In this document: positions 1 to 23,103 of the stretch, piece after piece
Numbering within the stretch: the first letter of the stretch is position 1
Layout: each line of letters begins with the position of its first letter
From: an uncultured bacterium
GTDB lineage: Bacteria; Armatimonadota; UBA5829; DTJY01
Assembly (NCBI GenBank): GCA_964466715.1
Contig: CAYXOC010000057.1
Coordinates: 1-23,103 of the forward strand
Direction of reading: 5' to 3'
DNA length: 23,103 bases
Notes under the pieces: generated by a model
Seen by the model: the letters and a program-made list of their open reading frames with translations, nothing else
The model's database searches: none
Told to the model about the DNA's origin: nothing
Position numbers and translations under genes: made by a program

Positions 1-227
1 TTGAACACCTCCTCTTTCTATTATACTCGGTGTCCACTTCTTCGATGGAAGGTCAAAGCGTGCATCTGCTCCGCGTGCCATCAGGGGAGGGGCTTAAGGT
101 CCTCTTCTCATTAGCGGTCCGAGGAGAGGCGATGAGGGAGTAACCCGCGCTCATAAGTCCGCCCATGCGCCGACCTTGCGACTCCACAGGCGGATGTCCC
201 GGTCATGATCGGCTGGGATGGGCTAGA

Positions 228-372
228 TATGGCGTGCGATGGCTCCGATTTGGAGTGCGACGGCTCGACGTCGCTCTGCATTCGGGCGGCTCGACGCCCA
301 TCCGTCCCCGGCGTGTCGAGCCACGCCTCCGAAAAGCGGTGTCAAGCCACCGCACTCCATGCCGGAGCCCCC
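228..372. repeat. Solo copy A of a ~130-bp nested-palindrome (REPIN-like) element; the same element flanks the RAYT gene at the window's right end
   Basis: Core GGAGTGCGACGGCTYGACGTCGC...GGCGGCTYGACGCCC...CCGGCGTGTCRAGCCACGCC...GCGGTGTCAAGCCACCGCACTCC, closely similar (not scored) to 22251-22409 and 22971-23103. Termini GGAGTGCG/CGCACTCC are inverted. The GGCTTGAC/GTCAAGCC motif occurs 4 times in alternating orientation. Track ORFs 165-419(+) and 203-415(-) are translations of this repeat. Confidence 0.6.
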
Positions 373-3861: not shown

Positions 3862-4665
3862 CTACACGGCGGACACCTCGATCTGTCCGGCGCCGTAGAA
3901 GCAATCGAGGTAGCTGCCGGCGACCTCTTCGATCGTGCCGTCCATGTGCACCGATCCGTCCCGGAGCCAGACTCCCCTGGTGCAGACCTTGCGCAGCGCA
4001 TCGATATCGTGGCTCACCATGACGATCGTGATCCCCTCGGCGATGGCGGACTGGAGCCGCTTCAGGCACTTGAGCCGGAATCCCTCGTCGCCGACCGCCA
4101 TGACTTCGTCGATGAGGAATATGTCGGGCGCGGCGCACATCGCAACGGCGAATCCGAGCCTGGCCTGCATTCCGGCGGAGTAGTACTTGAGGGGAGTGTC
4201 CATGAACCCCTCCAGCTCGGCAAAGTACTCGATGTCCGGCATGATTGAGGCCAGATACTTCTCCGACAGGCCGAGAATAGTGCCGTTGATGAAGACGTTC
4301 TCCGCCCCGGTCAGTTCGCCGTGGAATCCCGTCCCGATGCCGAGAAGGGCACAGACTCTGCCGACACGCCGCACCTCGCCGCTCGTAGGCTGGAGAATCC
4401 CGGCCATGAGCCTCAGGAGCGTCGACTTGCCGCATCCGTTCCGACCGAGGATGCCTACGGTCTCGCCTCGCCGGATCTCCAGGTTGATATCGCGCAGTAC
4501 GGTTCGGGTCTCGGTCTCCTTGCGCTTACCCAGGACCATGTCGAGCATCTCTCTCCGCAGCCACCGGTCGCGCCCCTGGTAGCGTCGAAAGTCCTTGCTC
4601 ACGTTCCTGAGAACGATGGCGGCGGTATCTCTATGCGGCAGACTAGATGACCTCAGCGAACTCAT
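3862..4665 (-). CDS. ABC transporter ATP-binding protein, polysaccharide-export type (Wzt/KpsT/TagH-like); no C-terminal carbohydrate-binding domain
   Basis: Walker A GILGRNGCGKST, ABC signature YSAGMQARLGFA and Walker B IFLIDEVMAVGD. At 267 aa it ends right after the NBD. The start overlaps the upstream permease by 23 nt. Confidence 0.9.
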   Translation of the reverse strand: MSSLRSSSLPHRDTAAIVLRNVSKDFRRYQGRDRWLRREMLDMVLGKRKETETRTVLRDINLEIRRGETVGILGRNGCGKSTLLRLMAGILQPTSGEVRRVGRVCALLGIGTGFHGELTGAENVFINGTILGLSEKYLASIMPDIEYFAELEGFMDTPLKYYSAGMQARLGFAVAMCAAPDIFLIDEVMAVGDEGFRLKCLKRLQSAIAEGITIVMVSHDIDALRKVCTRGVWLRDGSVHMDGTIEEVAGSYLDCFYGAGQIEVSAV

Positions 4666-5434: not shown

Positions 5435-7594
5435 CTATCCTTCTGCAGATTTGCTTCCGTCGTCGCGATTTCTAACGGTGAATCCTTGCCAGAACCCACG
5501 CATCCCCGCCGCAACACCGGCGATCCCGGCAAGGAACGGCCAGTCAGGCGGATCGTCGCCGGCGGCCCCGAACGCCGGAGGATCGGTCCTGAGCAGCCCC
5601 GCCACCATCCGCAGGGCCTTGATCCTCGATCGTCCGCGCAGGCTCAGTCTCTCGGCGGCGGCTCGTCGGATCATCCGGGAGTGCTCGATCCCCATGCGCA
5701 GGACTTCCTGCACGCTACGCACCGGCTCCCGCCAGATTATCGCTCTGGGCTCGTAGACGACTCCCTGGTACAGGTAGAACATCGCCACAAGCGCCCTGGT
5801 GATCAGCTCCATCTCGTCGGACGACCGGTATGGGAGCGACTTGAGCGCCGATATCAGCGCATCCCTCCTGAACACCGGGCGGTGACAGCAGACCGGAAAG
5901 CCGCTCAGGATGTCGGCCGGCCGCATCCAGTCGCTCAGGCAGGTATGTTCCCATGACCTGACTCGCCCGAAACTCGCAAGCTGATGATATAGCTCGTCGG
6001 CCCTGCTGCACACGGAACGAAGGATGGCCGGTGTCAGCACACAGCCGATGTCCGATCGGGCGAAGCAGGCTCTCACGGCATCCATCCAGCCGGGGTCAGG
6101 TCGGTCGCTCGGCGAGAGGAATGCTACCAGGTCGGACCGGCGCTCCTCCAGCGCTCGCATCAGGCATGATCGAAGTCTGCCTGCGTCGGATGCGATCCGG
6201 ATGATATGGTGACGGCTCAGTTCCCGACTGGGACAGACCTCCTGCTCGGATAAGACGACCACCGAGATGGACAGGCGATGCTCCGGCGCAGGCCCGATAC
6301 GGCGTCGCGTCGAAGCATTGCGGCTCGACGGGAGACCTTTGGCTCTCGGGATAACCTCCCATATCGAGCACCGCTCGGCAGGCGATCCCTGTCTGGCCTG
6401 CTGCCACATCTCATGCCCGCACGACAGGGAGAGATGGCGCGCGAGTATCTCCGGGTGGAGTTCGTCCTGCGGAGAAGCCTCCACCCACTTGGCGGGCGGC
6501 CTACCCACGCGCGGCAGCAGAAAGAGCGTGTCGTGCTCCGGCTTGGGATGAACAGTACACAGCCCGGAGAACACGTCGACGTCTTCCACCACGATGCGTC
6601 TGCGGGCGCGATTGTCCAACTCCATGCTCTCTCTCAGCAAGTCCTCGAATCGACCCATACCGCCGCAGGCGGAGACCGCGCCCAGGAAGTAGACGGCGTT
6701 CCGAACGCACTCCCAGAGCTGTCGGTATCCGGGGCTAAGCAGACGGTCCAGGTTGCGCTCGAAGAATGAGCCGAGGACTCGGATCGCCGCCTGAGGTCGG
6801 CCGCAGACGGGGATGACCAGCCTGCTCATTCCGCAGCATACCGGGCTGATGCGCCACCACCGAGCCAGTGGAAGACTGTGGAATAGATCGGGATGCTTCT
6901 CGGCAAATCTGATGTCCGCTCGCCCGAATGTGTACCACTTGCGCAGCGAAGAACGCGGCGTGTTGGTCGGGTAGTGATATGCCAGCGCGCGAGAGGCATG
7001 GTCCATCGCCATGCCGGACTTGAGCAGCCTCGCGCCAAGCTCATAATCCTCACGGCCGTCCTTCTCGAAGCACTCGTCGAATCCCCCGACGGCCTCGAAA
7101 TCCCGCCGAGGAAGCGATATGTTTCCCGTGACGCAGTCCTCGTAGGTGAATCTGTGGCCGGGGTTAGCCATCTCTGTGAACCGCTTGTGCCACCAGTCGC
7201 GAATCATGAAATCGAGGGGATTGACGGGCATCTCGGGAGCATACGGATAGGGGCCGACCGCGATGAGCCTCTCTCTCGACTCCTGGGCTTGCAGGTGGGC
7301 GTCGAGCAGTCCCGGTTGGGGCATCACGTCGTCATCCATGAAGAGCAGGATGTCTCCCGACGATGCCTCCGCGCCCCGGTTTCGCGCCGCTGCGGCGCCG
7401 GCTCCCGGCGTCTCGATGATATTCACCCTGTGACGGTGGTCCACGGACTCGAGCGCTTGCCGAGTGTTGTCGGTACACCCGTCCAGTACGAACGTCACCT
7501 CGACCTGAGATCGGCATTCCAGGCGATCGAGAGCCTCCGCCAGGCGCACCACGGACCGAGCTCGATTGTGTGTAGGGACCACTACACTAAGCAC
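5435..7594 (-). CDS. GT2 glycosyltransferase with a ~400-aa C-terminal extension of unknown function (possibly a degenerate second GT-like domain)
   Basis: LSVVVPTHNRARSV...FVLDGCTDNT...LLFMDDDVMP is GT2. I chose GTG 7594 as start: AGGAGG lies 9 nt upstream and it overlaps the upstream gene's stop by 8 nt. The track starts (GTG 7672, ATG 7663) would overlap the upstream gene by ~80 nt and have no good RBS. Confidence 0.8.
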   Translation of the reverse strand: MLSVVVPTHNRARSVVRLAEALDRLECRSQVEVTFVLDGCTDNTRQALESVDHRHRVNIIETPGAGAAAARNRGAEASSGDILLFMDDDVMPQPGLLDAHLQAQESRERLIAVGPYPYAPEMPVNPLDFMIRDWWHKRFTEMANPGHRFTYEDCVTGNISLPRRDFEAVGGFDECFEKDGREDYELGARLLKSGMAMDHASRALAYHYPTNTPRSSLRKWYTFGRADIRFAEKHPDLFHSLPLARWWRISPVCCGMSRLVIPVCGRPQAAIRVLGSFFERNLDRLLSPGYRQLWECVRNAVYFLGAVSACGGMGRFEDLLRESMELDNRARRRIVVEDVDVFSGLCTVHPKPEHDTLFLLPRVGRPPAKWVEASPQDELHPEILARHLSLSCGHEMWQQARQGSPAERCSIWEVIPRAKGLPSSRNASTRRRIGPAPEHRLSISVVVLSEQEVCPSRELSRHHIIRIASDAGRLRSCLMRALEERRSDLVAFLSPSDRPDPGWMDAVRACFARSDIGCVLTPAILRSVCSRADELYHQLASFGRVRSWEHTCLSDWMRPADILSGFPVCCHRPVFRRDALISALKSLPYRSSDEMELITRALVAMFYLYQGVVYEPRAIIWREPVRSVQEVLRMGIEHSRMIRRAAAERLSLRGRSRIKALRMVAGLLRTDPPAFGAAGDDPPDWPFLAGIAGVAAGMRGFWQGFTVRNRDDGSKSAEG

Positions 7595-10154
7595 TTCGCT
7601 GCAGCCTCCTGCCTGCGTACACACGGCCGGCGAGCGCGCTCGCCCGGTGGAGGAAACCCGCATCTCGCCCACCCTCGCCCTTGGCGAGACCTCTTCGCTC
7701 CGTTCCCTCCTGCAGACGAACCTGCGAGACGTACGCTTTGGCTTTGAAGTAGCCGATCGGTCCCCGCAGGACCCCGGCGATCTCGGAGAGCGTCAGCGAC
7801 AGGGGAACGCGCCCACGTCCCGTCAGCCCTCGGATGAGATCGGGCAGATGGTGATGTCTGAACCAGGCGCAACCTATCAGGAAAGCTCTCGGTTCGCGGT
7901 ATTCGAGCAGTGCCTTAGTCAGGAAGGCATACGTGCCGGTGTTGTAGCACTCGAGCTGACGTCGGTACTCCTCCATGCTCCTGCGGTGGGTATGCCAGAC
8001 CAGAGCGCCCGGCTCGTAGCAGATCTTGTAGCCGCGTGTCAGGAGCCTGTAGAACATGTCCGGCTCCTCACCGCATCTAGCGGGAGTTCCGGGGCAGAGA
8101 GCCTCGTCCAGCCCGCCGATGACACCCAGCACCGATGCCCGGAAAGCCATGTTGCCGCCGACGCCGATCCTCCCGGAGGAAACGGGATCGAGGTTCGTCT
8201 TGTCGTAGATGCGGCGCTCATAGCCGCGCCGCATGCCGCCGTCACCCCACTTCTCGAACAGTTCCTGGGCTCGGGTCTCCAGTTCGTAGGGCATGATGAG
8301 ACCGGTGACACACGCGATCGCCGGATTGAGCCGGAACGCGCCTTCGATGGCGTTCAGCCATTCCGGATCTACGACCACATCGTCGTCCGTGAAAGCTATG
8401 ATCTCCGCATCCGCCGCACGGATGCCGGCATTCCGAGCGAAATTGGCTCCCCGCTTCTTCTCTCGCACGTAGCGCACGCCGAACTCCCGGCAGAGCGCAT
8501 ACGTCTCCTCGCAGTCCACGCCGTTGTCTACGACGATGACTTCCTTCTTCGGATACGCCAGCTTCGAGAGGGAATCGAGGCATCTGCGCAGATGATCGTC
8601 GGGCCTGGTCACCGGCACCACCACGGCTATGGAGGGAAGCGACTCCGGCGCAGGACGCTCCTTCGGAGGGATCACGGCCTCCTCTACCTGCAGGCGCAGT
8701 ATGCGATCGGTGAAGCGCGACTCGATCTGCTGGCGGAGCCAATCGGCGGGGATCGTCTTCTGATGAGTCTTGATCCATATGTCGCCGAGCGTGCTTCCGC
8801 GATAGGTGATCAGCGCGAACAAGCCTGAATGCCCGGACGGAAGCGGGATGTCGGTCAGACCGTCAGTGATCTCGATCCGGCGGACAAGGCTGGCCATCGC
8901 CGATCCGTATCTGGTGACATAGCCGTCGGAAGCAAAGGATGCTTCGACCTTGCGCGCATGCCTCCTGGATCGGAGGTAAGCGATCGGGCCGTGGAGCGCG
9001 CCCCACATCTCCACGAGCAGTAGGCTCATCGGCATGCGCTCCCGATGGCAAAGTCTCCGAACCACACGGCCTGCGTTCCAGCGAAGGTACGGTCCGAAAA
9101 GGTATCTGAGGATCAGCAGACGAGACCGAGGATCGCTGAGGAACGCTTTGGTCTGAAGCGCGATGAACGACTTGCCGTAGCCGTATAGCTGCCTGCGCAG
9201 TTCGTCCATGCTCCTGCGGTGGCAGTGATAGACCAGCGCTTCCGGCCTGTACTCGATCCTGCACCCGGCGCGCATCAGCCTGCGGAACATGTCGAGATCG
9301 CCGCAGCCGCCGGTGGGGGTGCCCACGTCGAAGGCGACGTCGAATACGCCGACCCTGTCGAATGCCTCCCGACGGAACGCCATGTTGGCCCCGGTGCCTA
9401 TGCTCGGCCAGCATGTCTGGTACTTCCGGAGCGCGCCGGGCTGGTATACTAGAGGCTCAAACCCCCTGCCGAAACCGCCGTATGCGATCTCGAACAACTC
9501 CTGGGCATAGGTCTCCAGTTCGGCGGGAAACACCAGACCGGTGACGCACATGGTCTCCGGATCGCGGAACCCCTCAGCTATGCCCTTGAGCCATCCGGTG
9601 TCCGCGTAGGCGTCGTCGTCTATGAACGCGATGATGTCGCCCTTCGCCTCGGCGATCCCCCGATTCCGCGCCCAGTCGAGCCCCGGCCTGGGCTCCAGCA
9701 CGTATCGGAACGGGTACTTCCGCAACAGATCTCTTGTTCCCGGACCGGAAGGCGCGTTGTCGATGATCAACACCTCGAAGTTGTGGTAGTGCAGGGCCTT
9801 GAGCGACTCGAGAGTGCCGCGAATGGACTCATGGCGGTCTCTCGTGCAGACGACCACGCTGATGAACGGCTCGTCGGCACGGTTGGCGCGCGACCTCCGG
9901 CGCTCCGAGGGTATCGATCGGCCCGCGAGTCGAACGTAGACTTCATCTCTGGCAAGATCGGGCCAGAACCTGTCGCTGATGGCGCGTGCTAGCTGTTCCG
10001 GACGGATTATGCCCGGGCATCCATGAAAGTCCACGACTCCCAAAGGCACTCCGTTGCGCATCACGAGTACGCGCGTGAACTCATAGCGGTCGACGTCCAC
10101 CACCACCGCCGGCAGGGGCTTGGTGACGTCCACCGGGACGATCTTGATTGCCAT
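7587..10154 (-). CDS. Tandem-domain GT2 glycosyltransferase (two GT-A domains) with a ~100-aa N-terminal domain of unknown function
   Basis: Domain 1 is FISVVVCTRDR...LIIDNAPS...FIDDDAYADTGW. Domain 2 is IAVVVPVTRPD...IVVDNGVD...FTDDDVVVDPEW. The first ~100 aa precede the first GT2 core and contain no GT motif that I recognise. ATG 10154 is preceded by GAAGGAAGG. Confidence 0.85.
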   Translation of the reverse strand: MAIKIVPVDVTKPLPAVVVDVDRYEFTRVLVMRNGVPLGVVDFHGCPGIIRPEQLARAISDRFWPDLARDEVYVRLAGRSIPSERRRSRANRADEPFISVVVCTRDRHESIRGTLESLKALHYHNFEVLIIDNAPSGPGTRDLLRKYPFRYVLEPRPGLDWARNRGIAEAKGDIIAFIDDDAYADTGWLKGIAEGFRDPETMCVTGLVFPAELETYAQELFEIAYGGFGRGFEPLVYQPGALRKYQTCWPSIGTGANMAFRREAFDRVGVFDVAFDVGTPTGGCGDLDMFRRLMRAGCRIEYRPEALVYHCHRRSMDELRRQLYGYGKSFIALQTKAFLSDPRSRLLILRYLFGPYLRWNAGRVVRRLCHRERMPMSLLLVEMWGALHGPIAYLRSRRHARKVEASFASDGYVTRYGSAMASLVRRIEITDGLTDIPLPSGHSGLFALITYRGSTLGDIWIKTHQKTIPADWLRQQIESRFTDRILRLQVEEAVIPPKERPAPESLPSIAVVVPVTRPDDHLRRCLDSLSKLAYPKKEVIVVDNGVDCEETYALCREFGVRYVREKKRGANFARNAGIRAADAEIIAFTDDDVVVDPEWLNAIEGAFRLNPAIACVTGLIMPYELETRAQELFEKWGDGGMRRGYERRIYDKTNLDPVSSGRIGVGGNMAFRASVLGVIGGLDEALCPGTPARCGEEPDMFYRLLTRGYKICYEPGALVWHTHRRSMEEYRRQLECYNTGTYAFLTKALLEYREPRAFLIGCAWFRHHHLPDLIRGLTGRGRVPLSLTLSEIAGVLRGPIGYFKAKAYVSQVRLQEGTERRGLAKGEGGRDAGFLHRASALAGRVYAGRRLQRSA

Positions 10155-15698: not shown

Positions 15699-15783
15699 CA
15701 ATCCACAATCCCAAGTCCAAAATCCGCAGTCGGCAATCCGAAATCCACAATCCACAATCCGCAATCCGCAATCCGCAATCAGT
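15699..15783. repeat. Heptanucleotide tandem array, ~12 units of AATCCRC (minus strand GYGGATT), abutting the radical-SAM stop codon
   Basis: The array reads aatccac aatccca agtccaa (a)aatccgc agtcggc aatccga aatccac aatccac aatccgc aatccgc aatccgc aatcagt. Strict 7-nt periodicity is broken only by one extra A. Track ORFs MRIADCGLWI... are translations of this array. Coordinates are +/-1 nt. Confidence 0.7.
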
Positions 15784-16723
15784 AGCTGTTCTTGTTCTTC
15801 AGGATCCACTTCCCGATTTCGAACTTGCGCTTCTTGATCTCGGGCGAGACGCTTCCGATCATCCAGCAGTTGCGACCGCAGTTGCGCGCCAACTTGCGGA
15901 CCTCCTCGGCGCGGGGACTGGTCCAGATCTCCTCGAAGGTCTGCTCCTTGATGTTCCCCATGCTCTCGTCGAGCACGTTGCACGGCTTGATATCTCCCCA
16001 GGGCTCGCAGAGGAAGATATCCTGCCCCATGTTGCACGGGAGCAGGCGATCATTGCCGTGGACGTAGTTGATGATCCCGTGGTTGAAGTAAGCGCGATAC
16101 CAGTTCTTCGGCTTCTTGGTCTTGAACAACTCGCGGATCAGCTTGCGGACGTTCTCCGAGACCTCTTCTTTCTTGGTGATCGCGTTGTCGAACTTGTGGA
16201 AGTAGTAAGCATTGTGAACGACGGCGGTGGCGAACTCGACTTCGAGGTGCTTGGCAAGCTCGAACAACTCCAGGACGTCGGCGGAGTTCCGGTCGGAAAT
16301 GGTGATGCCGAAGCCGATGTCCTTCATCCCCATGCGCTTGAGCTGCAGGAGCGTGCGCAGGCCGTGGTCGAAGCCGTCCTTGATGCCGCGGAGCTCATCG
16401 TTCGCCGCGGGAAGCCCCTCAATCGAGATCCGTACGCCGATGTCGCCGCAGAACTTCTCCGCCAGCGCAACTATCTTCTCCGTATAGTAGCCGTTCGTGC
16501 TGATGCAGATGCGCTTGCACTTCGGCTTGACGATCCTGACGATTTCCTCCAACTCCTCGCGCAGGAAAGGTTCGCCGCCGGTGATGTTGAGGAAGTCCAG
16601 GTTGGGGAACCTCTCGTAGTACTTCGGGTCCATCTCCTGCTCGGGTGTGGAGGGATACTGCCAGGTGTTGCACATATGGCACCGCGCGTTGCAGCGGTAC
16701 GTTGCTACCAGAATGCCTTCCAT
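15779..16723 (-). CDS. Radical SAM enzyme with C-terminal Cys-rich auxiliary (twitch/SPASM-like) region
   Basis: The CNARCHMC (Cx3Cx2C) motif lies at residues 11-18 and ITGGEPFL is present. The C-terminal cysteines are ...LPCNMG...FLCEPWGDIKPCNV...NCGRNCW. ATG 16723 has AGAGG 7 nt upstream. Confidence 0.9.
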   Translation of the reverse strand: MEGILVATYRCNARCHMCNTWQYPSTPEQEMDPKYYERFPNLDFLNITGGEPFLREELEEIVRIVKPKCKRICISTNGYYTEKIVALAEKFCGDIGVRISIEGLPAANDELRGIKDGFDHGLRTLLQLKRMGMKDIGFGITISDRNSADVLELFELAKHLEVEFATAVVHNAYYFHKFDNAITKKEEVSENVRKLIRELFKTKKPKNWYRAYFNHGIINYVHGNDRLLPCNMGQDIFLCEPWGDIKPCNVLDESMGNIKEQTFEEIWTSPRAEEVRKLARNCGRNCWMIGSVSPEIKKRKFEIGKWILKNKNSY

Positions 16724-16873: not shown

Positions 16874-19012
16874 CTACTGCATGAAGCTGTACGTCGGCAC
16901 CTTCAGTATCCACCCAACCACCGGCCAGAGGCACCCAATGATGAAGTCGCCGAGCAGCAGGCCGATGAAGAAGTCCATCGCGACCCTGTAGAGCTTCATC
17001 CCGCCGTACCTGAGCACCAGGAACTTGGCGAGCCATGCGATGAACATCGGAAGCCAGAGCGTGCCGATCGAATAGCTGGTCGAGATGGCGAATCCCAGTG
17101 GATGGAACGGCCACCATCCGACCCTGAGCTTCATGAAGTAGAGGAAATAGGCGAACACCATCCCCCACCCGATCGCCAGCGTCGCAAGGATATCCGGCTG
17201 CTTCGGGACAACCAGCCAGTTGTGCAGCCGCCCGACGAACGCCTGGGAGCCGAAGTACGTTATGTGCCCCGCCATCCCCACTGATGCGCCTCTCGCATAA
17301 CCGAACTTGAGGAAGATCCAGAACCCGCTGATCACTGCGGCGACCGATGCAAGGCCGAGCGCAATCGCCATGTATCTCTGCGGAGTCTCGGTACGATGGG
17401 CGAGCTTGAAGCCGTCGAGCTGATATGCTATCGGGATGCTCCTGTAGGCTCGGTTGAACCAGAACAGCCAGTTCATGCTCGCGAGCTGCTGTGGAGAGAA
17501 TGCCGCGGGTCCGAGCGCGCCGATCAATACGACCTCCGGGCCGATGCCGTGCAGGTCGTGGGCCGGCGGCCCGAACTCGGCGTGCATCTTGGCGATCGCC
17601 AGCGCGAGGAAGAAGTACATCACCACGACGGCGACGGCTATGTACCATCCCATGCCGATCACCTGGAAGAACCACATCAGGGCGATCAGACCGACTGCGA
17701 TCCCGAGAAACGCGGTCCGATATCGCATCGGCCCGTTCGCCTCATCAGGATCATAGTGACCGTGGAAGGCGGCCCGATAAACCTTCGCCAGATGCTTCCT
17801 CGCCGACCATAGCGCGAACACGGCGACGAGGTAGTACGCTCCGAGCGCCTGCTGGTCCATGAACGGAAATGTCGGCGTAGACTGATAGATGCCGTACATG
17901 TCGCCGAAGATGCGGATCACCCTCCACATGACGTAGAAGAACCAGCAGGAGAAAAGCATATCGAGCGGGAGCAGGAAGCTCAGCCCGATGCCGTAGGGAT
18001 AGAACGAGATCGGCGTCCATCCGATCGCGCTCCACGGACGACCGGGCATGAGCGGCGAGATGTCCCACATCTTCACGTTCAGAGTCGGCAGCGACGGATA
18101 GAACAACTGCATGCCGTTGAGGATCGAGATGCCCGCCGCGATGGAAAACCCCGCCCACATCAGGCGGCTGCGGAAGATGCGCTGCCCCGGCTCCGTGATC
18201 TGGAGAGGAAGCTCGACGATCGGGAAGAGCAGCTTCTCATTCTGGATCCACTGCTGGCGGACGAGCGTATTGATGCAGTACATCACCGCCAGCATGATCA
18301 GGATCACGGCGGACCAGACTCCGATCGGCAGGAGCCAGTGGCGCATGATGCTCCATGTCAGGACGGTGTGTCCCTCGTACCAGCCGCGGACCGCCTCCGG
18401 GTCGCTCACGCTGATCCAACTCGGGATGTACGGAAGCATGATCTGCGCCCAGCGGTTCTCCGGCGTGGCGAACCGGAAGGGATAGGTGATCATCGGCATC
18501 AGGACGTCGAGGAAATCGATGCTCACGATGGCTGTGGAGACGGTGAGCATCGCGTAGATGACCAGGAGTTCCCCGCGCTCGAGGGCAGCGGAACCCCTCC
18601 CCGACCCTCCCCGCCACGGGGAGGGAGTTGATACTCCATCCCCGCCACGCAGAGCGTTGAATGAGGGAAATGCCGCCCCATCCACACCACCTGGAGGGTT
18701 GGGGGAGGATGATGCTACCCCCTCCCCGTGGCGGGGAGGGCTGGGGAGGGGTCCGATCCTCCCGATCAGGCTATTGACCAGCGTCAGGACTATCAGAAAG
18801 AGGATCGTATTGGCAAAAAGCGAGATCGTCGACGGATACGGGCCGGCGCCGGAGTTGCTCATGTTCCGGAAGCCGACCTCCATGTAGAGCAGGAAGTAGA
18901 CGTTGACCGGCACGAGGATCGTCCCGAGGATGATCGCTCGGTAGTGGCGCAGGAACCCCGTGAGCCTGCGCTTCTCGACTTGCCCTTGCATCTCTCTGAT
19001 ACCGCTCTCCAT
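16874..19012 (-). CDS. Large polytopic integral membrane protein (712 aa, >12 predicted TM helices), function unknown, with an in-frame low-complexity insert
   Basis: Hydrophobic helices occur throughout, e.g. ILGTILVPVNVYFLLYMEV and FFIGLLLGDFIIGCLWPVVGWIL. Residues ~88-150 (PLPSPPRHGEGV...STPSPWRGGSGRG) are Pro/Gly-rich and encoded by a TIR-bearing palindromic element. The start is ATG 19012, or ATG 18991 as an alternative. Confidence 0.8.
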   Translation of the reverse strand: MESGIREMQGQVEKRRLTGFLRHYRAIILGTILVPVNVYFLLYMEVGFRNMSNSGAGPYPSTISLFANTILFLIVLTLVNSLIGRIGPLPSPPRHGEGVASSSPNPPGGVDGAAFPSFNALRGGDGVSTPSPWRGGSGRGSAALERGELLVIYAMLTVSTAIVSIDFLDVLMPMITYPFRFATPENRWAQIMLPYIPSWISVSDPEAVRGWYEGHTVLTWSIMRHWLLPIGVWSAVILIMLAVMYCINTLVRQQWIQNEKLLFPIVELPLQITEPGQRIFRSRLMWAGFSIAAGISILNGMQLFYPSLPTLNVKMWDISPLMPGRPWSAIGWTPISFYPYGIGLSFLLPLDMLFSCWFFYVMWRVIRIFGDMYGIYQSTPTFPFMDQQALGAYYLVAVFALWSARKHLAKVYRAAFHGHYDPDEANGPMRYRTAFLGIAVGLIALMWFFQVIGMGWYIAVAVVVMYFFLALAIAKMHAEFGPPAHDLHGIGPEVVLIGALGPAAFSPQQLASMNWLFWFNRAYRSIPIAYQLDGFKLAHRTETPQRYMAIALGLASVAAVISGFWIFLKFGYARGASVGMAGHITYFGSQAFVGRLHNWLVVPKQPDILATLAIGWGMVFAYFLYFMKLRVGWWPFHPLGFAISTSYSIGTLWLPMFIAWLAKFLVLRYGGMKLYRVAMDFFIGLLLGDFIIGCLWPVVGWILKVPTYSFMQ
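18594..18751. repeat. ~158-bp MITE-like element with 32-bp imperfect terminal inverted repeats, inserted in-frame within the membrane-protein CDS
   Basis: Left arm CCCCTCCCCGACCCTCCCCGCCACGGGGAGGG (18594-18626). The right arm reverse-complements to CCCCTCCCCAGCCCTCCCCGCCACGGGGAGGGGG (18718-18751). Each arm is itself a hairpin (CCTCCCCG-CCAC-GGGGAGG). The reading frame continues through on both strands; track ORF 18558-18887(+) is the mirror translation. Confidence 0.5.
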
Positions 19013-21033: not shown

Positions 21034-21696
21034 CTACGCGGCCATCGCGCCTCTCGCTGCGATCGTCGCCTCGAGCGACTCGTTGCCGATCTCGTCGGCC
21101 TTCGTGCCGCGGTAGCTGACCACATACGTGTAGTCCGCGCCCGGACCGGTGATCCGGTCGATGTAGGGCGATGCGCTCTGGAATGCGATCAGTTCGTAGC
21201 GCTCATCGCCGGTCCGCTTGCGGTAGATGTTGCAGCCCTTCGCCCACGACGGCTTCCTGTTGATCCGCTCGTTCAGCGGCTCGGTGCCGAAGTGGACCTT
21301 GACGCTGCCCGGAGCCGTCTCGACGAAGATGCCCGGGATCTCGCTTCCGACCGTCGCCAGGGTGCGAACCGTGTCGCTCCTCTCCGGCAGGCCCAGATTG
21401 CTCCGAAGGGTGTTCGTCATCCCCGGATGGTTGTTGATCCGGCGAACGAGCGGCCGCAGGACTGCGATCGCCGAAGCGCGGAAGTCCTTCTTGGTGCTCG
21501 ACTTGGTGGCCAGATCGTTCTTCGCCGCCTGGTACGCCGTCACCGCGGCGCCGAAAGCCGCCGATACGCCCTCGATCGGCGCGAGATCGTCCGGAGCCAG
21601 ACCGACTTCGGCGGTATGCGCGCTGAGTACGGTCACGAAGTTTGCGAGCCAAAGCTTGAACTGCTCATCGTTTGAGGACACGTAGTCCGTAGACAT
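21034..21696 (-). CDS. Hypothetical protein (220 aa), no recognisable domain
   Basis: Clean ATG 21696 with a perfect RBS (TTAGGAGGTATGTACT-ATG). Terminated by the hairpin/T-run at 20961-20996. It is preceded upstream by the 21-bp repeat array. Confidence 0.75.
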   Translation of the reverse strand: MSTDYVSSNDEQFKLWLANFVTVLSAHTAEVGLAPDDLAPIEGVSAAFGAAVTAYQAAKNDLATKSSTKKDFRASAIAVLRPLVRRINNHPGMTNTLRSNLGLPERSDTVRTLATVGSEIPGIFVETAPGSVKVHFGTEPLNERINRKPSWAKGCNIYRKRTGDERYELIAFQSASPYIDRITGPGADYTYVVSYRGTKADEIGNESLEATIAARGAMAA

Positions 21697-21788
21697 AGTA
21701 CATACCTCCTAACCGGAGAGATTCTGCTCCCCCTGATCGATCGGCGATCGATGCCGGCGGCCCCGGTCCCTCGTGTTCTCACACCCGC

Positions 21789-21956
21789 GATGCAGGCTTA
21801 CGGAACGGCAATGTAAGCTTACATTTCGACAATGCAAGCTTTCATTGCGCCAATGTAAGCTTTCATTGCGGGAATGTAAGCCTTCATTGCGGGAATGTAA
21901 GCCTTCATTGCGACAATGTAAGCTTGCATTCCGGGAATGTAAGCTTGCATTGTGAG
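21789..21956. repeat. Array of 7 (plus 1 degenerate) direct 21-bp repeats, each with a palindromic core AATGTAAGCTTACATT; iteron/operator/centromere-like
   Basis: Units start at 21810, 21831, 21852, 21873, 21894, 21915 and 21936: aatgtaagcttacatttcgac / aatgcaagctttcattgcgcc / aatgtaagctttcattgcggg / aatgtaagccttcattgcggg / aatgtaagccttcattgcgac / aatgtaagcttgcattccggg / aatgtaagcttgcattgtgag. There is a degenerate unit at 21789-21809. Exact 21-bp phasing and no spacers. Track ORFs 21709-22143(-) and 21773-21955(+) translate the repeats. Confidence 0.8.
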
Positions 21957-22061
21957 ACGGGAACGGGCCGACGGCGTTACGGAACTCGATGAAAGAGATC
22001 AGGAATGAAGGACAAGAGTGCATCCCGAAACCAGGAAGCTGTCTGCACATGGAGCAACCGG

Positions 22062-22103
22062 TATCCCCAAATCTGAAATCGCAAATCTCAGATCTGCAAT
22101 CCC
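22062..22103. repeat. Second heptanucleotide tandem array (~5-6 units, AAATCNS-like)
   Basis: gtatccc(c) aaatctg aaatcgc aaatctc agatctg caatccc. It is related in composition to the 15699-15783 array. Confidence 0.5.
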
Positions 22104-22250
22104 GATAGCGCTCCACGGACTCACCTCGTGGTGGTCTGATCAATCCCCGTCCGTAACTCTAGTTGTACAAGGAGCAGTTAGATCTCTCATTCCATGATCT
22201 GCATCATTTCTCTAGGTATTTTTACGTGGGAGCACAGGCTTTTTTCGGCC

Positions 22251-22409
22251 CTTGGAGTGCGATGGCTCGACATCGCCATGGAGTGCGACGGTTCCGATTT
22301 GGAGTGCTACGGCTTGACGTCGCTTTGGTCCCGGGCGGCTTGACGCCCACCCACCCCCGGCGTGTCAAGCCACGCCTCGGAAAAGCGGTGTCGAGCCACC
22401 GCACTCCAT
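22251..22409. repeat. REPIN-like nested-palindrome element, copy B, flanking the RAYT/Y1 transposase gene; contains an extra partial unit at its 5' end
   Basis: GGAGTGCGA occurs three times at the 5' side, then the core shared with copies A and C, ending CCACCGCACTCCATA at 22409, 13 nt before the tnpA stop. Confidence 0.65.
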
Positions 22410-22422
22410 ACGAGCCTCGATA

Positions 22423-22950
22423 CTAGAAATCGTCGTGGATATTCAGACGGTCGGTTCTAAAGCTATTAACCGTCTTGAGGAGCCCGTCAGGCGCAGTGCG
22501 CTCGAACCATGAGGCGGAGCACCACTGATAGTCGGCTGGTATGCTCACGATGCCATGCTTCACGGGATTGTCGTACACATACTTCAGCCGGGCGAAGTAG
22601 GACTCCTGGTAGGTGAGCTTGGTGTCGAAGTACTGAAACCAGACCTTGCGTCCGGGAGTGCTATCGAGCTTGTTGACCGCCGTAGCGGTGACGGTATGCA
22701 GGTGGCTCATGAACCTGGGGAGGTTCGTCGCATCCTCAGGCGAGTTGGCTATCAGGTGGTAGTGATTGCTGAAGACGGCCCAAGCCTGGAGCATCCACCC
22801 ATAGCGCTCTGCAAGCTGGAGGAGCGTGTCGTGCAGAACAGCGAGCCGATCATCGCCTCGGAAGTAGTGCTCCTTGTGGAGGGTTCCGCAGGTGATCATG
22901 AAGGCTCCCGCCTCGGACAAGCGGTGAACCGGCGCATGCGGCCAATCCAT
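22423..22950 (-). CDS. IS200/IS605-family Y1 (HuH) transposase, most consistent with a REP-associated tyrosine transposase (RAYT)
   Basis: HuH motif SNHYHLIANS and the C-terminal YVYDNPVKHGIV motif typical of the Y1_Tnp/RAYT family. 175 aa. ATG 22950 has AGGAGG 6 nt upstream. Flanked on both sides by near-identical REPIN-like elements. Confidence 0.85.
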   Translation of the reverse strand: MDWPHAPVHRLSEAGAFMITCGTLHKEHYFRGDDRLAVLHDTLLQLAERYGWMLQAWAVFSNHYHLIANSPEDATNLPRFMSHLHTVTATAVNKLDSTPGRKVWFQYFDTKLTYQESYFARLKYVYDNPVKHGIVSIPADYQWCSASWFERTAPDGLLKTVNSFRTDRLNIHDDF

Positions 22951-22970
22951 ATAGTACCTCCTGCATTCCT

Positions 22971-23103
22971 ATGGAGTGCGACGACACCAATATGGAGTGC
23001 GACGGCTTGACGTCGCTCTGGTTTCGGGCGGCTTGACGCCCCTCCACCCCCGGCGTGTCAAGCCACGCCTCGGAAAAGCGGCATCAAGCTGCCGCACTCC
23101 ATA
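22971..23103. repeat. REPIN-like nested-palindrome element, copy C (runs to window edge)
   Basis: ATGGAGTGCGACGACACCAATATGGAGTGCGACGGCTTGACGTCGC...GCGGCATCAAGCTGCCGCACTCCATA, in the same orientation as copies A and B. Confidence 0.65.

Follow-up and report, generated by a model that had tools for sequence, protein, structure and literature searches.

Is a palindromic DNA segment within a membrane-protein gene a native part of that gene, or a mobile repeat that has entered it and is now read through in frame? This question is raised by a 23,103-nt stretch of DNA from an uncultured bacterium of the Armatimonadota (assembly GCA_964466715.1, contig CAYXOC010000057.1), which we refer to throughout as the window and to which all unqualified coordinates belong. 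Positions 18594-18751 of the window form a GC-rich, 158-nt palindromic element with 32-nt arms, as read directly from the sequence. The element lies inside the gene at 16874-19012 (minus strand), which encodes a 712-aa polytopic membrane protein with DUF6785 and DUF6784 domains. An earlier note on this DNA had proposed that the segment is a small mobile element resembling a MITE (miniature inverted-repeat transposable element), inserted in frame in the gene.

We compared the gene with the DNA of its three closest full-length orthologs (P0001, P0002 and P0003) and with that of a relative, carried by a 5.37-Mb contig (ERZ25039554 contig_4527). The orthologs share synteny across an NAGPA gene, the DUF6785 gene and a radical-SAM/SPASM gene. 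Alignment of both DNA and protein showed that P0001, P0002 and P0003 lack exactly 53 codons of the window gene, corresponding to residues 88-140 and to 159 nt at 18593-18751 (minus strand), that is, the 158-nt core plus one base. The added loop is thus shorter than the approximately 60 aa at first estimated. The loop between helix 2 and helix 3 has 7-8 residues in the three orthologs (ARWFDAA, ARRFGVA and ARGAFPRP), whereas in the window protein it reads GRIG, 53 additional residues and SAA (7 + 53). P0001, whose site is empty, is the sister of the window gene, with 87.1% identity and 99.6% neighbour-joining bootstrap support. Among 120 listed homologs nearly all are 600-680 aa long, compared with 712 aa in the window. 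The identical 712-aa protein was present on six contigs from at least three assemblies (European Nucleotide Archive and two Joint Genome Institute samples), and the insertion is therefore not an assembly artefact. The expectation that related orthologs would lack the loop held for all syntenic orthologs but one, the relative in the 5.37-Mb genome, to which we return below. The window segment is an insertion that is absent from the syntenic orthologs.

The left arm (18594-18625; 32 nt, CCCCTCCCCGACCCTCCCCGCCACGGGGAGGG) is composed of an outer C-run CCCCTCCCC, the linker GA and an inner hairpin CCCTCCCC-GCCAC-GGGGAGGG at 18605-18625, and the right arm (18720-18751; 32 nt, CCCTCCCCGTGGCGGGGAGGGCTGGGGAGGGG) of an inner hairpin CCCTCCCC-GTGGC-GGGGAGGG, the linker CT and an outer G-run GGGGAGGGG. 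The arms are mutually reverse-complementary except at two linker bases. Exact computation thus upheld the earlier description of the arms as inverted repeats that each form a hairpin, through CCCTCCCC-N5-GGGGAGGG in both; the right arm itself also stood, but the 34-mer given for it began at 18718 and its start is here 18720. By repeat finding, the inverted arms extended to 18593-18643 and 18702-18752, including A18593 and T18752, over 51 nt at 80% complementarity with 58 nt between them. The inner 21-mer CCCTCCCCGCCACGGGGAGGG, itself a hairpin, occurs at 18605-18625 (plus strand) and 18720-18740 (minus strand) with no third site within the window, where dinucleotide shuffles gave 0.00 expected matches. 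The region was predicted to fold strongly, with an RNA folding energy of -124.6 kcal/mol compared with -85.7 +/- 4.8 kcal/mol in dinucleotide shuffles (z = -8.1; 0 of 200 shuffles equally good). The interior (18626-18719) is variable and contains two further, decayed copies of the hairpin unit, at 18636-18656 (81% identity) and 18678-18698 (76%), so that the element comprises four hairpin modules with spacings of 31, 42 and 42 nt. A canonical G-quadruplex motif, GGGGAGGGCTGGGGAGGGG, lies in the right arm at 18733-18751 (plus strand), with its mirror in the left arm at 18594-18612 (minus strand), and these two are the sole canonical G-quadruplex motifs in the 23-kb window. Three of the six reading frames are free of stop codons over the whole element, and the arms contain no stop codon in any of the six. 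Rfam returned no family at its gathering score, only sub-threshold hairpin look-alikes (MIR820, 31 bits against 196), and a promoter and terminator scan found no such sites within the element.

To count copies, we scanned metagenomes for the exact arm pattern CCCTCCCCGNNNCGGGGAGGGNNGGGGAGGGG, which matched 112 loci. This agrees with the proposal of a multi-copy mobile element, and the window element is one copy of a dispersed, non-autonomous palindromic family, which we here name C4TC4. The window's own sample, Ga0116193, contributed ten loci on nine contigs, with GC contents of 0.59-0.65 and tetranucleotide correlations with the window of 0.92-0.975, the range of true relatives of the window organism; one of the loci in this sample (L160) carries an identical left 32-mer. 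Many further copies came from the sister sample Ga0208826 and from dozens of short contigs of a third organism in Ga0315273. Since named homologs of the host proteins are annotated as Armatimonadota, we assign the copies to an Armatimonadota-like lineage. Pairs of left and right arms spanned 43, 71, 80-92, 107, 125, 146, 158, 183, 186, 221 and 264 nt. The 43-nt form is a single perfect hairpin, and longer forms gain hairpin modules and variable spacers, their interiors differing from copy to copy. Of 192 arms, 34 lie no more than 70 nt from where a contig or locus ends, as would be expected for a repeat at which assemblies break. Viral contigs gave no match to the arm pattern. Among GTDB species representatives, which do not include the source genome, the 21-nt hairpin matched in proteobacteria, actinobacteria and firmicutes as the hairpin alone, often in terminator-like contexts, and the nested architecture was seen only in Chloroflexota, cyanobacterial and a few other copies. 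We found no account of the C4TC4 family in the literature on the motif, on Armatimonadota repeats or on intragenic REPINs, an absence that is not proof of novelty.

Two observations concern arrangements outside the typical copies. Five loci (L001, L004, L020, L028 from Aerosakkonema sp. and L031 from a Chloroflexi metagenome-assembled genome) carry the same inner hairpin within other outer arms, ACCCCACCCCC ... GGGGGTTAGGTT. These elements lie inside open reading frames (ORFs) that remain uninterrupted over hundreds to thousands of codons, and the cyanobacterium has a GC content of 44-48%; in-frame residence may therefore extend to other phyla. At L082 (2-285) and L084 (1763-1968), arms in the same orientation form tandem arrays with spacings of 126 nt and 58 nt, which suggests local amplification of modules.

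We next consider how copies of the family sit in coding sequence. The distinct arm pairs numbered 26. Where same-strand coding sequence of high GC content at third codon positions (0.72-0.94) flanked a copy on both sides, the copy was in phase and open in 14 of 14 cases, and none was frameshifted; the chance of this is (1/3)^14. With a fifteenth intragenic copy, near the N-terminus of a DinB gene, at least 15 of the 26 distinct copies (at least 58%) reside in frame in genes. Pfam recognises domains to either side of, or across, the element in GH27 alpha-galactosidase, peptidase U32, an FHA protein, HypE, class II fructose-bisphosphate aldolase, GH116, GT4 and GH2 proteins; MtnA is a further host, and in DinB (IMS domain) and a GHMP kinase (N domain) the element splits a domain. 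All three frames of the arm are in use, giving PLPxPPRHGEG, TPPQPSPLRGGG and NPSPALPATGRG. The conservation of phase in the intragenic copies argues that the elements are translated and not bypassed or spliced. The earlier comparison with the in-frame insertions of Rickettsia palindromic elements (RPEs) was thus borne out in unrelated, Pfam-verified hosts. In the DinB-like polymerase gene at L066 (11419-11601; the same as L132), a 183-nt C4TC4 element splits the IMS domain and the adjacent conserved motif reads SASLECG, not SxSYEAR; judging from this sequence, nucleotide-binding residues may have been lost and the gene inactivated or remodelled. One glycoside-hydrolase-like gene at L157 carries two consecutive in-frame elements near its N-terminus (4411-4620 and 5990-6180), and a further element lies just past its stop codon.

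In the window gene, the 712-aa ORF runs uninterrupted through the element, so the frame is kept, as had been noted. Residues 88-140 read PLPSPPRHGEGV...PSPWRGGSGRG. The opposite strand is indeed open as well, with a mirror-like translation, PLPDPPRHGEG...PSPWRGGLGRG, in an ORF at 18558-18887 (plus strand). At the junctions between loop and host the predicted peptides are ...LIGRIGPLPSPPR and GGSGRGSAALER, for example IGPLPSPPR and GSGRGSAALER. Pfam DUF6785 matches the protein in two stretches, the main one starting at residue 142. An AlphaFold model of the 712-aa protein built with 47 homologs had a mean pLDDT (predicted local distance difference test) of 86.8 and a pTM (predicted template modelling score) of 0.89. 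It placed the insert in low-confidence coil: residues 87-145 are coil, with pLDDT below 50 at 95-139, between confident helices at 62-86 and 146-163. The model fits a predicted disordered loop that is tolerated while the remaining fold stays confident. We infer that the loop is really translated and that the insert is neutral to its host.

To which class of repeat does the element belong? Like a MITE, it is short (158 nt), has terminal inverted repeats and encodes no protein of its own. However, 25 distinct copies showed no target-site duplication: the longest flanking direct repeat averaged 0.8 nt compared with 0.64 nt at random positions, and direct repeats of at least 3 nt flanked 1 of 25 copies compared with 8% of random positions. 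Inspection of arm pairs 0.4-4 kb apart found none enclosing a transposase in approximately 660 kb of loci. The MITE label proposed earlier is loose: the inverted repeats, the small size and the non-autonomous nature agree with it, but neither target-site duplications nor a parent insertion sequence (IS) or transposase was found among these loci.

The element also shares features with repetitive extragenic palindromes (REPs) and with REPINs, their inverted doublets, since each arm forms the hairpin CCCTCCCC-N5-GGGGAGGG and the two arms are inverted into one large fold. GTAG and CGTC tags define two REP super-families, and REPs are mostly extragenic (PMC3733652). The C4TC4 arms begin A-CCCCTCCCC and end GGGGAGGG-AGT, with neither GTAG nor CGTC at either end, and the family lacks the extragenic bias, at least 15 of its 26 distinct copies being intragenic and in frame. 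The window does encode a REP-associated tyrosine transposase (RAYT) of 175 aa at 22423-22950 (minus strand), which scored 78.5 bits against NCBIfam NF047646 (cut-off 80) and has the HUH motif HYH. It is flanked by two copies of a 140-nt palindromic repeat (22271-22410 and 22964-23103), a third copy of which lies at the other end of the window (222-361). These repeats are unrelated to the element at 18594-18751, in agreement with the earlier separation of the element from REPIN-like repeats at the window ends, and together with the RAYT they have the appearance of a RAYT/TIRYT-repeat unit separate from C4TC4. A phmmer search with the window RAYT against all ORFs of all loci found no homolog in the other element-bearing loci.

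The in-frame presence of a palindromic repeat in many unrelated genes, compatible with their folds, is RPE-like. Homology to RPE-1 to RPE-10 is very unlikely, judged from composition and host phylum; rickettsial genomes are AT-rich. The best reading is that C4TC4 is a REP/RPE-like mobile hairpin, neither a classical MITE nor a demonstrated REPIN.

Examination of the sequences abutting the copies revealed a further property. At many copies the unique flanks are inverted repeats of one another, with a mean perfect run of 5.5 nt compared with 0.37 nt at random positions and longest runs of 19 nt (L090), 13 nt (L107), 12 nt (L094 and L097) and 10 nt (L123). This is also the case for copies in coding sequence, where a few host residues are rewritten. 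Copies of the Ga0315273 organism show strong flank palindromy, those of the window's lineage a weak one of 1-3 nt; in the window itself, TCCG at 18752-18755 pairs with CGGA at 18589-18592 with a one-base bulge at A18593. The empty orthologous sites of the window gene are, by eye, non-palindromic, which rules out a pre-existing palindromic target at this site and indicates that its flank palindromy was acquired. Assembly fold-back artefacts were rejected as the source, because complementarity ends at or before 19 nt and the host frame runs on for hundreds of codons. The model of a core plus an inverted flank copy at insertion was also rejected: calculated by hand, 8 of 15 intragenic copies fitted it modulo 3, no better than chance. 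Comparison of MtnA genes gave a net gain of 78 nt against a 71-nt core, which is ambiguous because loop length varies. Our preferred explanation, by analogy with template-switch mutagenesis at quasi-palindromes, is that the hairpin may template its own extension into the flanks.

In three of the three host genes checked, the corresponding loop in the related 5.37-Mb genome was occupied by a palindromic element of a different kind. In its DUF6785 gene (L046), the element is a C-rich variant of the same nested architecture with arms CCGGACCCTCACCCCCGACCCCTCTCCCTCAGAAGGGCGAGGGG. The MtnA gene (L167, 10330-10400) contains a perfect 28-bp GTAG-type REP doublet in frame, and the peptidase U32 gene (L169, 10781-10927) two nested GTAG-type doublets, also in frame; CTGTAGGGGCGTGCCTTGTGCCGCC with its complement exemplifies the GTAG-tagged arms of these two loci, which are perfect over 28 and 32 bp. 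In other close orthologs of DUF6785, MtnA and U32 the loops are empty. The insert-bearing genes are not sisters for DUF6785 (0% bootstrap) or U32 (0.4%), and are sisters for MtnA (99%). A common origin of the window and L046 inserts was rejected, as they share only a weak, G-rich local alignment (score 26) and the tree rejects sisterhood. Such recurrence could reflect repeated independent hits on a few permissive loops, a preference for an existing hairpin, or precise excision in relatives. It has a precedent in Xanthomonas, where roughly the same position of orthologous recB genes is occupied by different REPs (Di Nocera et al. 2013; PMC3733652). Separately, we observed that the L046 DUF6785 ortholog contains an in-frame TAG at 9983-9985 (GW*EGH, compared with GWYEGH elsewhere), and it is called as two ORFs for that reason; the gene is a pseudogene, or else the long-read consensus contains an error.

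Taken together, we judge the following reading to be about 80% probable. A C4TC4 copy inserted in a DUF6785/DUF6784 gene of an Armatimonadota-like bacterium, at the short loop that links two transmembrane helices. Because the arms are stop-free in six frames and the insert amounts to 53 codons, the host gene stays open and the element would be translated. It would then be a selfish passenger, encoding a disordered loop rich in Pro, Gly, Ser and Arg at a permissive site with the fold intact. Such insertions would be tolerated as the arms add no stops, only whole-codon gains would survive in genes, and the peptide would be flexible and located at permissive sites. As to how the element moves, we tentatively suggest, as a possibility that may well prove wrong, that an HUH/RAYT-type enzyme, encoded at another place, mobilises it in trans in the form of single-stranded hairpin DNA. 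An enzyme of this type would insert and excise without duplications, which would explain conserved ends with a free interior, the lack of duplications and possible precise excision; the palindromic flanks would come secondarily, by hairpin-templated template switching. Several points weigh against the interpretation as a whole. Pfam analysis of genes neighbouring the copies, over approximately 660 kb of loci, found no transposase or candidate mobiliser beside any of them, and a simple transposon model predicts neither flank palindromy nor recurrent occupation of the same loop. Multiplicity within one genome rests on contigs of similar composition from the same sample. Translation of the loop would require survival of an mRNA with a -125 kcal/mol hairpin, and an RNase III gene is present in a related genome. 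We weighed other explanations of the segment. The idea of a native, low-complexity loop that is palindromic by accident is consistent with the maintained frame and with a Pro/Gly-rich peptide like many natural linkers, but deserves next to no credence, as the segment is missing from the sister gene (87% identity) and from all other syntenic orthologs but one, more than 100 unrelated loci carry identical arms, and the Pfam model skips the segment. Almost as implausible is an untranslated element, cut from the mRNA or bypassed by the ribosome like the GC-rich byp elements of some yeast mitochondria, for which a precedent was reportedly provided by Lang et al. in 2014. The extreme stability of the hairpin would suit such a mechanism, yet bypass or excision would leave phase and stops unconstrained, and all 14 intragenic copies are in phase and open. 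Co-option, in which the hairpin or G-quadruplex regulates the host gene (through mRNA stability, or translational pausing at membrane insertion) or the loop functions in the protein, also appears improbable. It would be in keeping with the exact allele on six contigs in several samples, the very stable structure and the G-quadruplex motifs on both strands; however, arms of this sequence are shared by unrelated enzymes and intergenic DNA and are used in all three frames, the closest orthologs are empty, the peptide is predicted to be disordered and the interior is degenerate.

The remaining alternatives concern the mode of spread. A strict REPIN, a REP doublet moved by a cognate RAYT that could be the one encoded 3.7 kb away in the window, would account for two inverted self-palindromic units in a long hairpin and for the lack of target-site duplication, and GTAG-type REP doublets do occur in frame in genes of related genomes. 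We nevertheless consider it unlikely: the window RAYT is flanked by the unrelated 140-nt family, neither a GTAG nor a CGTC tag is present on the arms, the loci of other copies hold no RAYT homolog, and the share of intragenic copies is at least 58%, REPs being mostly extragenic (PMC3733652). Somewhat less doubtful, and the main rival, is spread, or at least growth, without a transposase, in which replication stalls at the G-quadruplex or hairpin and the palindrome is then pasted and lengthened by foldback or template-switch copying. This would also yield the palindromic flanks (5.5 against 0.37 nt, up to 19 nt, even in coding sequence) at sites that were non-palindromic when empty in the window gene, and is consistent with units that are modular multiples of one hairpin, with the tandem arrays, with a G-quadruplex motif in each arm and with the failure to find a transposase. 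However, more than 100 unlinked loci share arms identical over 32 nt, which needs copy-and-paste over a distance and is hard to achieve by template switching alone; in addition, the modulo-3 test of flank copying was at chance, and the flanks of copies in the window's lineage are only weakly palindromic (1-3 nt). In a related and similarly speculative scheme, a self-folding G-quadruplex/hairpin module would be copied into new sites, would rewrite its flanks as inverted repeats by foldback or template switching, and may prefer existing palindromic inserts. If this were true, protein loops would contain lasting palindrome hot spots in which element families replace one another across lineages, and a transposase-independent or novel-enzyme mechanism would be steadily adding disordered loops to bacterial proteins in several phyla.

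With C4TC4 read as a REP/RPE-like mobile hairpin, its relation to described systems can be specified. As far as RPEs (Ogata et al. 2000, 2002) are summarised in PMC10969869 and PMC3733652, they are likewise short (approximately 100-150 bp), dispersed palindromes of which a large share lies in frame in unrelated, apparently functional genes; in these summaries, as in our data, the conserved peptide is tolerated at surface or loop positions and there is no associated transposase. They differ in that C4TC4 is unrelated in sequence and GC-rich (C4TC4/G4AG4) whereas RPEs are AT-rich, and in that it inhabits a free-living lineage, Armatimonadota-like and with approximately 5 Mb of genome, rather than a reduced intracellular alphaproteobacterium. 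C4TC4 also differs in its modular nested hairpins, from a 43-nt single hairpin to 264 nt, in its palindromic flanks, and in arms that are open in six frames, three of which are used. The REP/REPIN-RAYT systems (REPIN concept: Bertels and Rainey) share with C4TC4 an inverted doublet of a short self-palindromic unit, a long hairpin and the lack of target-site duplication, and intragenic REP dimers that contribute 20-80 aa are on record (Di Nocera et al. 2013; PMC3733652). Unlike these, C4TC4 has no GTAG/CGTC tag, no RAYT was found flanked by C4TC4 arms, and most copies are intragenic. Bacterial MITEs such as Correia/NEMIS, ERIC, RUP and Nezha (PMC10969869) are comparable in size and terminal inverted repeats, lack coding capacity of their own, fold into strong secondary structures and occasionally fuse in frame with host ORFs. 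In contrast to them, C4TC4 lacks target-site duplications and has an interior that is not conserved, and the loci inspected contained no parent IS whose ends match. The coding palindromes of Nematomorpha mitochondria (PMC6649704) are also long perfect inverted repeats in protein-coding genes, where the two arms are either translated or tolerated, but these are organellar and their arms encode conserved parts of proteins, not an added loop. The phase conservation of C4TC4 argues for translation, which separates it from the byp elements of yeast, which are organellar and bypassed. Like C4TC4, byp elements and the GC clusters of yeast mitochondria consist of hairpin modules rich in GC that spread through the genome.

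Frequent residence of selfish palindromes in frame in proteins has so far been known mainly from Rickettsia, with scattered intragenic REPs elsewhere. The C4TC4 family extends this behaviour to free-living bacteria with large genomes, with more than half of its copies in conserved enzymes. It raises the questions of whether such elements are translated, how permissive loops are chosen, whether new disordered regions are seeded in this way and what the mobiliser is. Flank palindromy and hot-spot loops could be the parts that set C4TC4 beyond the phenomenon of RPEs and intragenic REPs. In practical terms, assemblies break at repeats of this type, gene calls are split and protein lengths are inflated.

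The window contains two other repeats. A tandem array of approximately nine 21-nt units, each an inverted repeat (AATGyAAGCTTdCATT), occupies 21785-21978; it is intergenic, beside small ORFs at 21034-21696 and 21709-22143, and from its sequence looks like a set of iterated binding sites. At 15700-15794, approximately 13 copies of the heptamer AATCCRC form a tandem repeat that adjoins the 3' end of the radical-SAM/SPASM gene (15779-16723, minus strand).

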